From Escherichia phage MirsaeidiM_Esher1, in sequence record PQ438048.1: DNA of 64,000 nucleotides; one strand, 5' to 3'. A program made the position numbers and the translations under genes. A model generated the notes under the pieces. The model was given only the letters and a program-made list of their open reading frames with translations, searched no databases and was not told where the DNA came from. Below, piece after piece: positions 43,636-44,307 of this stretch. Within the stretch, counting starts at the first letter, position 1. Every line of letters begins with the position of its first letter.

Positions 43636-44307
43636 CTATTTAATGTTCAATCTAGCACACAAGCGAGAAACAGTTTTAGCATCCCACTTACCACCACGTG
43701 CTGTTGCGATTTTCTTACTATTGAATTTTTCAGCAATAGTTTTGTAAGGTGTATTTAAATCTCTAAGGATCTCCAAGCGTTCACGGAATGTCTCTGCAAA
43801 AGCGTCTGCTTTAACAGAATTGTATTCCATTTTTCCTTTTCTACGTGCAGCGGCAGTTTTAGGATTAGCACTGCCTAATAAAACACCTTTGCTTTTTGCT
43901 ACAGCAAGACCCTTTTTAATACGATCAGCAATACCTCTGACTTCTTGTTCAGCCAGAACAGACAGAAGCTGTATAACCATTTTATCTGCATCTGGCATGA
44001 TGGCTATCTTAACATCGATCATTTCTAGAAGAGTTGCTACGGAGGCGTTGTTACGACCCAAGCGGTCAACTTTAGCTACCAACAAAGTTGCTCCGGTAGC
44101 TTTACACATTTCAACCGCTTTGACCAGTTCCTTACGTTGCTTCCAATCGCCCTTACCCGAATAGTATTCAGAAAATTGACCAATAACTTCAGCATCAGGC
44201 ACAGAGTCTAAGAAGTAACGGATATCGTTCTCTTGGCTCTCCATACCATATTGTGCCTCACCTTTTTTCTGTTTAGAAAGACGACTGTAAACAACAAACT
44301 TTTTCAT
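43636..44307 (-). CDS. small serine recombinase (resolvase/invertase family)
   Basis: N-terminal VYSRLSKQKKG (catalytic Ser), LLVAKVDRLGRN motif, C-terminal HTH-like tail; AGGAG RBS; own TTGACA-N17-TAAAGT promoter upstream. Confidence 0.75.
   Translation of the reverse strand: MKKFVVYSRLSKQKKGEAQYGMESQENDIRYFLDSVPDAEVIGQFSEYYSGKGDWKQRKELVKAVEMCKATGATLLVAKVDRLGRNNASVATLLEMIDVKIAIMPDADKMVIQLLSVLAEQEVRGIADRIKKGLAVAKSKGVLLGSANPKTAAARRKGKMEYNSVKADAFAETFRERLEILRDLNTPYKTIAEKFNSKKIATARGGKWDAKTVSRLCARLNIK

Follow-up and report, generated by a model that had tools for sequence, protein, structure and literature searches.

Introduction

The closest described relatives of the enzyme studied here are Tn3 and gamma-delta resolvase and Sin, which resolve cointegrates or multimers at one site per replicon and are encoded directly downstream of their own promoters. 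Their catalytic domain is followed by helix E and a C-terminal DNA-binding domain, which in the Tn3 and gamma-delta enzymes is an HTH_7 of ~40 aa. The invertases Gin, Cin, and Hin (of Mu, P1, and Salmonella), some of which are phage-encoded, are of similar size and N-to-C topology and flip a segment bounded by an inverted pair of sites. Large serine recombinases, such as the Bxb1, phiC31, SPbeta SprA, and A118 integrases, are typically 450–700 aa long, and their zinc-ribbon domain and coiled coil provide att-site discrimination and directionality. In the unrelated family of tyrosine recombinases, Cre of phage P1 acts on one loxP site per genome, circularising the terminally redundant incoming DNA and resolving dimers.

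We analysed a small serine recombinase encoded in a 64,000-nucleotide stretch (the window) of Escherichia phage MirsaeidiM_Esher1 (PQ438048.1). Its catalytic fold and active-site residues, the order of helix E and the C-terminal domain, and the promoter directly upstream are those of Tn3/gamma-delta resolvase and Sin, as is the role that we propose for it. In contrast to the Tn3/gamma-delta enzymes, its ~75-aa, four-helix C-terminal domain shows a relationship to PF07508, the gene has no visible res site with accessory subsites beside it, and the replicon is a lytic phage genome rather than a transposon or plasmid. From Gin, Cin, and Hin it is set apart by a different putative DNA-binding domain and by the lack of an inverted site pair, an invertible segment, and tail-fibre linkage. 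The first helical part of the large-serine-recombinase "recombinase domain" is homologous (motif IA..LN...T.RG..W); however, the phage protein has only 223 aa and lacks the rest of that domain, and 5,426 complete E. coli genomes yielded neither an attP/attB pair nor a prophage state. Cre, a site-specific recombinase encoded by a phage, offers a functional analogy only, in that its role is of the kind that we propose here; P1, in contrast, is temperate and plasmid-borne, and no site was found in the 329-bp terminal repeat. Our reading, which we put forward tentatively and at less than even confidence, is that of a catalytically competent small serine recombinase with its own host-type promoter, presumably early, which is a vertically inherited core gene and would act like a resolvase on a single site per genome.

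Identification of the Recombinase Gene

The coding sequence occupies positions 43636–44307 on the minus strand (223 aa, stop codon included), as defined from the ORF list, Pfam PF00239, and comparative identity. It runs from an ATG at 44307–44305 to a TAG at 43638–43636. The program-made ORF list had placed the start at a GTG at 44313; we chose the ATG because an AGGAG lies 6 nt upstream of it. The initial annotation of this DNA had reported an N-terminal serine-recombinase catalytic signature, and both motifs that it quoted are present, VYSRLSKQKKG at residues 6–16 and LLVAKVDRLGRN at residues 75–86. Pfam Resolvase (PF00239) matched residues 5–142 with E = 5.2e-18 and 66 bits, above the curated cutoff of 23.3 bits, and PHROG 125 ("DNA invertase") matched with E = 2.6e-32; both profiles place the protein among the recombinases. 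The best sequence matches among solved structures were Tn3 and gamma-delta resolvase. The protein has no curated equivalog in NCBIfam, where the top match (YneB-like) scored 32 bits against a cutoff of 175. The locus at 43636–44307 encodes a real, intact small serine recombinase, and we hold this identity, together with the core-gene status described below, with very high confidence.

As a gene call, the recombinase is already known, and nothing new is added here. A 100% identical protein occurs in 62 phage records of GenBank, under names that include hypothetical, putative site-specific recombinase, resolvase, serine recombinase "gin", and DNA invertase, and one wrong label, "methionine ABC transporter ATP-binding protein". 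One identical protein, phAPEC8_0049, has been in GenBank since 2012 with the note "putative site-specific recombinase". The literature on the recombinase consists of annotation-level remarks, and in one paper the gene was overlooked (PMC10269720).

Catalytic and C-Terminal Domains

The catalytic domain and the long helix E (residues 1–146; 43870–44307, minus strand) were delimited by alignment, an AF2 model, and Foldseek. The nucleophile Ser11 is encoded by TCT at 44277–44275. In a 27-sequence alignment extending down to 31% identity, Y7, R9, S11, D81, R82, R85, and E120 are invariant, so the catalytic serine is retained throughout, and PF00239 matches all 27 aligned relatives. Tn3 and gamma-delta resolvase align with the stretch that includes D81, R82, and R85. 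By motif correspondence, we take Y7/R9/S11/D81/R82/R85 to be the equivalents of gamma-delta Y6/R8/S10/D67/R68/R71. The AF2 model, built on the family alignment, has a mean pLDDT of 89.5 and consists of a beta-alpha catalytic fold, helix E at residues 109–139, and a four-helix C-terminal domain. With this model, Foldseek retrieved the catalytic domains of Sin, gamma-delta, and TP901-1 with TM scores of 0.54–0.73, normalised on the target. We infer that the recombinase is catalytically competent.

The C-terminal domain (residues 147–223; 43639–43869, minus strand) carries the motif IAxxxN...TxRGGKW and was characterised with PF07508, a profile search, and Foldseek. PF07508 ("Recombinase") matched residues 187–216 of the query with E = 0.003, which is below the cutoff, and the match covered only positions 19–48 of the 102-position profile. 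Across the family, the N-terminal part of PF07508 was matched in 16 of the 27 sequences and HTH_62 in two, while HTH_7 (PF02796) was found in none of them and not in the query. A search with the family profile matched the Bxb1 and SPbeta integrases across the C-terminal region, and the top whole-model match in Foldseek was the Bxb1 large serine recombinase (259 columns). Neither a zinc ribbon nor a coiled coil was found in the recombinase, and the model ends four helices after helix E. The domain resembles the start of the large-serine-recombinase "recombinase domain" rather than the HTH_7 of Tn3 and Gin and, by analogy with these relatives, would bind DNA.

These features qualify the class assignment of the initial annotation, which had described a resolvase/invertase topology with a short C-terminal HTH-like tail: the N-to-C order and the short helical tail hold, but the tail is not HTH_7. 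Its exclusion of the IS607 type is sound, as the catalytic domain starts at residue 2–5 with the putative DNA-binding domain C-terminal to it, and the IS607 hallmark of a MerR-like HTH N-terminal to the catalytic domain is absent. It was equally right to exclude a large serine integrase, given that the protein stops at residue 223. The DNA-binding domain places the recombinase between the small and the large serine recombinases; the enzyme is ordinary in kind, with a modest structural twist.

The protein database holds 93 clusters of this family, nearly all of 213–258 aa, and more than 542 IMG/VR loci carry a member. The family ranges over virulent phages of 125–150 kb (including Vibrio and Shewanella phages and some ICP1 isolates), prophage-like contigs, and plasmids.

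Promoter and Downstream Genes

A consensus scan located a sigma-70-type promoter, TTGACA-N17-TAAAGT, at 44337–44365 on the minus strand (10/12 positions). Promoter-like sites were no more numerous in the region than in shuffles, and the case for this promoter is therefore a comparative one. Upstream of the gene, the 70-bp spacer contains one substitution across six genomes and is far more conserved than the synonymous sites of the gene itself (14–20 differing positions). Furthermore, a sigma-70-like promoter lies directly upstream of every homologue examined in large virulent phages, with equivalents in Justusliebigvirus, Klebsiella, Shewanella, ICP1, and metagenomic phages. The scan, the spacer conservation, and the promoters of the homologues bear out the initial annotation, which had given the gene this promoter of its own. 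Such a promoter suggests expression by the host RNA polymerase at the start of infection, and the recombinase is presumably expressed early.

Four small genes follow on the same strand (43217–43627, 42862–43227, 42590–42862, and 41974–42585), separated by gaps of at most 8 nt or overlapping behind the recombinase. ORF spacing and a terminator scan delimit this run to 41948–43627, and a terminator-like hairpin at 41968–41948 ends it. The recombinase and the four genes are probably co-transcribed as one operon from the recombinase promoter. The four genes match only PHROGs of unknown function, and we rejected the neighbours as identifiable cargo on this account.

The conserved spacer could also be explained if the protein had lost recombination and were purely a DNA-binding regulator, perhaps repressing its own operon. 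Resolvases classically autoregulate, and the Klebsiella-phage homologues have a perfect 10+5+10 palindrome across the -10 region. However, a pure DNA binder would not keep R9, S11, D81, R82, R85, and E120 invariant to 31% identity, and we regard the loss of recombination as very improbable. Autoregulation and catalysis are not mutually exclusive.

Conservation and Genomic Position

The window belongs to Phapecoctavirus (phAPEC8-like myoviruses, Stephanstirmvirinae) and is colinear with Escherichia phage vB_EcoM-Ro121c4YLVW. Among 62 intact Phapecoctavirus copies, the recombinase gene shows 97.0–99.9% DNA identity. The copies in DE16, SF1-1, phAPEC8, and nieznany differ at 20, 18, 14, and 17 nucleotides, respectively, with no non-synonymous change in any of them. 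For the same four relatives, the gene directly downstream shows 12–14 synonymous versus 8–10 non-synonymous codon changes; the non-synonymous share in neighbouring genes is roughly 10–45%, most others being intermediate. The recombinase is under extreme purifying selection, with dN effectively zero.

A subfamily marker gene (28415–29005 in the window) was found in 132 phage records, including phi92. The recombinase set (~130 Stephanstirmvirinae records) is the same as the marker-gene set, with identical counts by organism name, and comprises 64 Phapecoctavirus, seven intermediate phages (e.g., phiWec181 and Citrobacter Tr1), and ~60 Justusliebigvirus and Klebsiella phages including phi92. No presence/absence polymorphism of the recombinase was seen in the ~132 Stephanstirmvirinae records. 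The recombinase is a vertically inherited core gene of this obligately lytic subfamily.

In phage Schickermooser, seven small deletions affect the first 250 nt of the recombinase gene. We rejected this copy as a pseudogene or a sign of dispensability, since the same record has frameshifts in three other nearby genes; the deletions probably reflect sequence quality.

In Justusliebigvirus (phage alia and Klebsiella phage FKP3), the recombinase lies on the other transcription block, flanked on one side by a methyltransferase together with a 67-aa ORF and on the opposite side by a phosphatase together with a DprA-like gene. In the window, the counterparts of the genes that flank it in phage alia are at 27974–28165 and 28433–28996. 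Flanking-gene mapping and direct comparison identified the "empty" counterpart of that site as a 46-bp intergenic spacer (28178–28223, plus strand) with the terminator-like hairpin ATACTCCCTTTTCGGAGGGAGTATTTTT. The order methyltransferase, 67-aa or small ORF, recombinase is shared by Justusliebigvirus and a metagenomic phage with a 39%-identical recombinase, and in Shewanella phage 1/40 the recombinase follows PhoH and an HslV-like gene and precedes a DprA-like gene. The Justusliebigvirus arrangement appears to be older than that of Phapecoctavirus, because the orders in the metagenomic phage and Shewanella phage 1/40 match it. The comparison indicates that a promoter-plus-gene unit of ~730 bp moved by ~16 kb into the leftward early block in the Phapecoctavirus lineage, which includes phiWec181 and Tr1. 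A comparison of 80 viral loci for a partner gene, which revealed the PhoH/methyltransferase/DprA context, gave lineage-specific synteny only and no universally conserved partner.

This relocation bears on the suggestion of the initial annotation that the gene might mark a small mobile insertion. A promoter-plus-recombinase unit moving itself selfishly between positions or phages would fit its occurrence at different loci and on opposite strands in the sister genera, precisely between conserved genes. The very large number of family loci in viral contigs points the same way, as does a 30%-identical homologue in DRC isolates of Vibrio phage ICP1, where it lies in a variable block whose genes are without numbering inherited from the earlier ICP1 annotation. 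Against mobility, the gene is present in essentially all members of the subfamily and, in distant relatives, lies within a conserved module; the history of the subfamily includes one relocation only, and the Justusliebigvirus position is common to distant phages. The unit has no flanking repeats at either position and no target duplications. The divergence of the recombinase between the genera (57% aa) falls within the range of neighbouring core proteins (33–87%), as expected for vertical descent, and the near-absence of amino acid change argues for a benefit to the phage. We consider a selfish cassette improbable.

Search for Crossover Sites

The complete genome of the colinear relative (151,671 bp, assembled from four pieces) was compared with itself. 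The only inverted repeats of at least 18 bp were rho-independent terminator hairpins and palindromes, and the direct repeats were early-promoter cassettes and a 127-bp assembly overlap. A repeat-pair search of the 8 kb on either side of the recombinase and of the whole window likewise returned no inverted or direct crossover pair. These searches agree with the initial annotation, which had found no obvious crossover-site pair by eye.

The initial annotation had raised a second possibility, an invertible host-range segment of the Gin/Cin type. A Gin/Cin/Hin-type invertase that flips a phage segment, such as the tail-fibre ends, to switch host range would be in keeping with the "DNA invertase" label of PHROG 125, with the "gin" and "DNA invertase" names in several GenBank records, and with the Gin structures, which gave the best PDB E-values in the profile search. 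However, beyond terminator hairpins and palindromes, the inverted repeats that such a system requires were found neither in the 151,671-bp relative nor in the window, and the C-terminal domain is not HTH_7. The 24.5-kb tail-fibre module occupies a single place on one strand in ~65 Phapecoctavirus records, the only two-place records being those cut by record ends; its variation arises by module replacement, not inversion. The tail-fibre genes are more than 60 kb from the recombinase, and the 8 kb around the recombinase are colinear in 62 genomes. The Gin/Cin reading is close to refuted.

We also searched for a single crossover site. The spacers flanking the recombinase measure 70 bp upstream and 8 bp downstream. 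The upstream spacer contains one 24-bp dyad (8/11 per arm), which is at chance level and overlaps the -35 element; the promoter alone could account for the conservation of this spacer. In Phapecoctavirus the genome ends are defined, and the close relative Schickermooser carries a 328-bp direct terminal repeat (PMC6563267). Its terminal repeat maps (329 bp) to 53411–53739 in the window, where no dyad with 12-nt arms was found. An AT-rich palindrome at 754–791 and a 38-bp palindrome at 53961–53998 were rejected as crossover sites owing to their odd or 6-bp centres. Such centres are atypical of the sites used by serine recombinases, also in the conserved palindromes near the terminus. The two long palindromes, one in a region of divergent promoters and the other next to the genome terminus, are more likely linked to a replication origin or to packaging. 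The 13-mer ATTCGTTTTGTAA occurs in the recombinase promoter and at 54117 and 17193 in the window (three copies versus 0.15 expected); it was rejected as a site because the copy at 17193 forms the first codons of a ribonucleotide reductase gene.

The outcome of the repeat and dyad searches leaves room for an enzyme whose target is not phage DNA but the host chromosome, a resident prophage, a satellite, or a plasmid, and which would serve in early takeover or counter-defence. The host-type promoter, with its probably immediate expression, and the position of the gene in an early block among small genes without assigned function are in line with this idea. According to published abstracts and PMC13552941, inversion by small serine recombinases from cryptic prophages of E. 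coli changes phage adsorption, and enzymes of this class also have a link to defence islands, which lends the idea further support. Nevertheless, the hosts are diverse (E. coli, Klebsiella, and Citrobacter), yet the protein is invariant within Phapecoctavirus, and the ancestral locus is a DNA-metabolism module rather than a set of host-takeover genes. Action on host or other foreign DNA is a serious alternative, although on balance an unlikely one.

A Pseudomonas homologue with phage tail genes on one side and chromosomal genes on the other, and several viral contigs from isolates with a homologue 4–8 kb from an end, might suggest an integrase serving a hidden temperate or carrier state. A precedent is the resolvase-like small serine recombinase of the filamentous Ralstonia phage phiRSM, which is reportedly an integrase. 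On the other hand, a 2-kb region containing the gene had no match in the 5,426 complete E. coli genomes even at blastn sensitivity, no repressor or RDF-like partner is apparent among the neighbours, and these phages have been described as strictly lytic, with no prophage matches (PMC10282059). An integrase is scarcely credible here. As neither a prophage form nor an invertible segment was found, we regard the recombinase as neither an integrase nor a host-range switch.

Proposed Function

The reading that we prefer has copies of a single phage site recombining in the manner of a resolvase. It is possible but doubtful, and draws in part on analogy with plasmid relatives. The lack of a repeated site is consistent with an enzyme that requires one site in each genome copy. 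Full-length homologues with 35–40% identity are found on non-mobilizable plasmids of 5.7–6.5 kb, for example Marinovum pMaD11 (5.8 kb), Klebsiella plasmids (5.7–6.5 kb), and a Synechococcus plasmid (6.4 kb), which otherwise contain only Rep, Par, and a few hypothetical genes. On such tiny plasmids, a serine recombinase is normally a multimer resolvase, and these homologues presumably resolve multimers. In a Klebsiella plasmid, a 34-bp dyad with 16-nt arms and a 2-bp centre, which is the architecture of a crossover site, lies 35 bp upstream of the homologue gene. Moreover, the defined ends with a terminal repeat make circularisation or junction processing a real step in the phage life cycle.

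From the chemistry of the family, dimers of the recombinase would bind a dyad-symmetric crossover site via the C-terminal helical domain, and two site-bound dimers would synapse into a tetramer. Ser11 would then cut all four strands, forming 5'-phosphoserine links, after which half of the tetramer would rotate by 180 degrees and the ends would be religated. The partners in this reaction would be copies of the single phage site on sister or concatenated genome copies, and the replicating phage DNA may thereby be monomerised, circularised, or otherwise processed. On the role, the literature offers a single comment, given without support, according to which the enzyme maintains concatemers as single genomes (PMC10282059).

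Several observations speak against a resolvase role. Multimer resolution is not obviously needed by lytic phages with packaging from concatemers. The upstream spacer, the terminal repeat, and the adjacent palindromes yielded no crossover site. The plasmid homologues are distant in sequence and are known from sequence alone. As for the family as a whole, some members are encoded close to the ends of contigs that resemble prophages and could be integrases, which speaks against a uniform function.

Conclusion

The recombinase is a nearly absolutely conserved core gene in phages with uses in therapy and biocontrol. Recombinases are flagged by automated pipelines as pointing to a risk of lysogeny, and the evidence presented here argues against an integrase or a host-range switch in this case. 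The DNA-binding domain may interest those studying the evolution or engineering of serine recombinases. A more far-reaching reading, which we consider speculative and rather unlikely, is that the ~220-aa enzymes form a "mini large-serine-recombinase" clade, with a catalytic domain followed solely by the initial helical module of the large-serine-recombinase "recombinase domain", and were kept by lytic terminal-repeat phages over hundreds of millions of generations for an early, essential site-specific step on their own genome. One candidate step would be the circularisation of the genome or the processing of junctions at a conserved non-coding block that adjoins the 329-bp terminal repeat (~53.4–54.7 kb in the window). 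If true, a virulent life cycle would here put site-specific recombination to a new use, and the enzyme would be a very compact recombinase with DNA recognition like that of the large serine recombinases.

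Inverted repeats upstream of recombinase homologues

In Shewanella phages 1/40 (L017) and 1/4 (L018), identical 9-bp inverted repeats, AAACCCAGT and ACTGGGTTT, lie directly upstream of each phage's recombinase gene (about 5930-5965 in each). The 16-bp loop between them, which overlaps the promoter -10 region, reads GACTTAATATAAGGTT in one phage and AACCTTATATTAAGTC in the other, the two being exact reverse complements. Template switching that flipped the hairpin loop is a more likely cause of this reversal than site-specific recombination. In the Klebsiella aerogenes plasmid pIIIF7SW-P1_2 (L096), a 34-bp dyad, TATCATTTGTTTGCCG-NN-CGGCAAATTTATGATA (4323-4356; 16-nt arms, 81% complementarity, 2-bp centre), is located 35 bp upstream of a full-length homologue with 36% identity. 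For this subfamily of recombinases, the dyad is a candidate crossover site.

Repeats and palindromes in the window

Of perfect long "inverted repeats" the window has only one, a pair of identical 22-bp terminator hairpins (AACCCGCTTCGGCGGGTTTTTT) at 32724-32745 and 37447-37468, in opposite orientation and 4.7 kb apart. At the second hairpin the rightward gene block meets the leftward one, and as an inverted repeat the pair is a trivial match. An AT-rich, near-perfect palindrome of 36-38 bp, TAATAATTATTTATTA TTAA TATTTAATAATTATTA (754-791), occupies a spacer of ~480 bp from which the tRNA/structural block and the rightward block diverge; the palindrome may serve as an origin or as a bidirectional promoter region.

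The sole direct repeats in the genome are units of ~64 bp, present in at least eight copies, each preceding a small early gene on the minus strand (55900-63850). Each unit runs from a TTGACA-N17-TAnnnT promoter through a GC-rich stem-loop (GGCGGCAATGGTGCCGCC) to an RBS, an arrangement resembling the promoter-early stem-loop cassettes known from T4-type phages.

Genome terminus and the adjoining non-coding block

Phage Schickermooser has a direct terminal repeat of 329 bp, which corresponds to 53411-53739 of the window; the physical genome ends are therefore located here. Adjoining this segment is a block of ~0.9 kb without credible ORFs, the region as a whole (53411-54660) being the start or end point of many GenBank records. 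The inner ~670 bp of the block (about 53980-54652) retain 70-80% DNA identity subfamily-wide (138 records), whereas the surrounding early genes are not conserved at this level. Beside the terminus, the block contains a 38-bp palindrome at 53961-53998, a hairpin at 54019-54039, and an inverted repeat whose 24-nt arms span 53935-53958 and 54057-54080. A search of Rfam gave no match for the block, which probably functions in packaging or terminus formation or as an origin.

The Schickermooser recombinase copy and neighboring genes

The recombinase copy in Schickermooser (MK373788.1; L001, 3001-3653) carries seven small deletions of 1-7 nt each, all within the first ~250 nt. Three genes near it are also frameshifted in this record, and the copy is either a real decayed allele or the result of locally poor assembly.

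Four paralogues of phrog_2510, a family of ~105-120 aa, are dispersed across the early block (41584-41922, 42862-43227, 46297-46623, and 49622-49933, all on the minus strand), with additional copies present in phiWec181 and Citrobacter phage Tr1.

Upstream of the recombinase lies a 70-aa DUF7202 (PF23832) gene (44378-44590, minus strand). Several GenBank records label the recombinase "methionine ABC transporter ATP-binding protein", and others label the 70-aa product "putative ABC transporter ATP-binding protein", which looks like a propagated annotation error. The DUF7202 protein shares 80-84% identity with a gene product in about 600 T4-type phage records (tk.3/tk.4 region in RB32) but only 47% with its counterpart in the sister genus Justusliebigvirus. 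This pattern suggests that the gene was exchanged recently between T-even phages and Phapecoctavirus.
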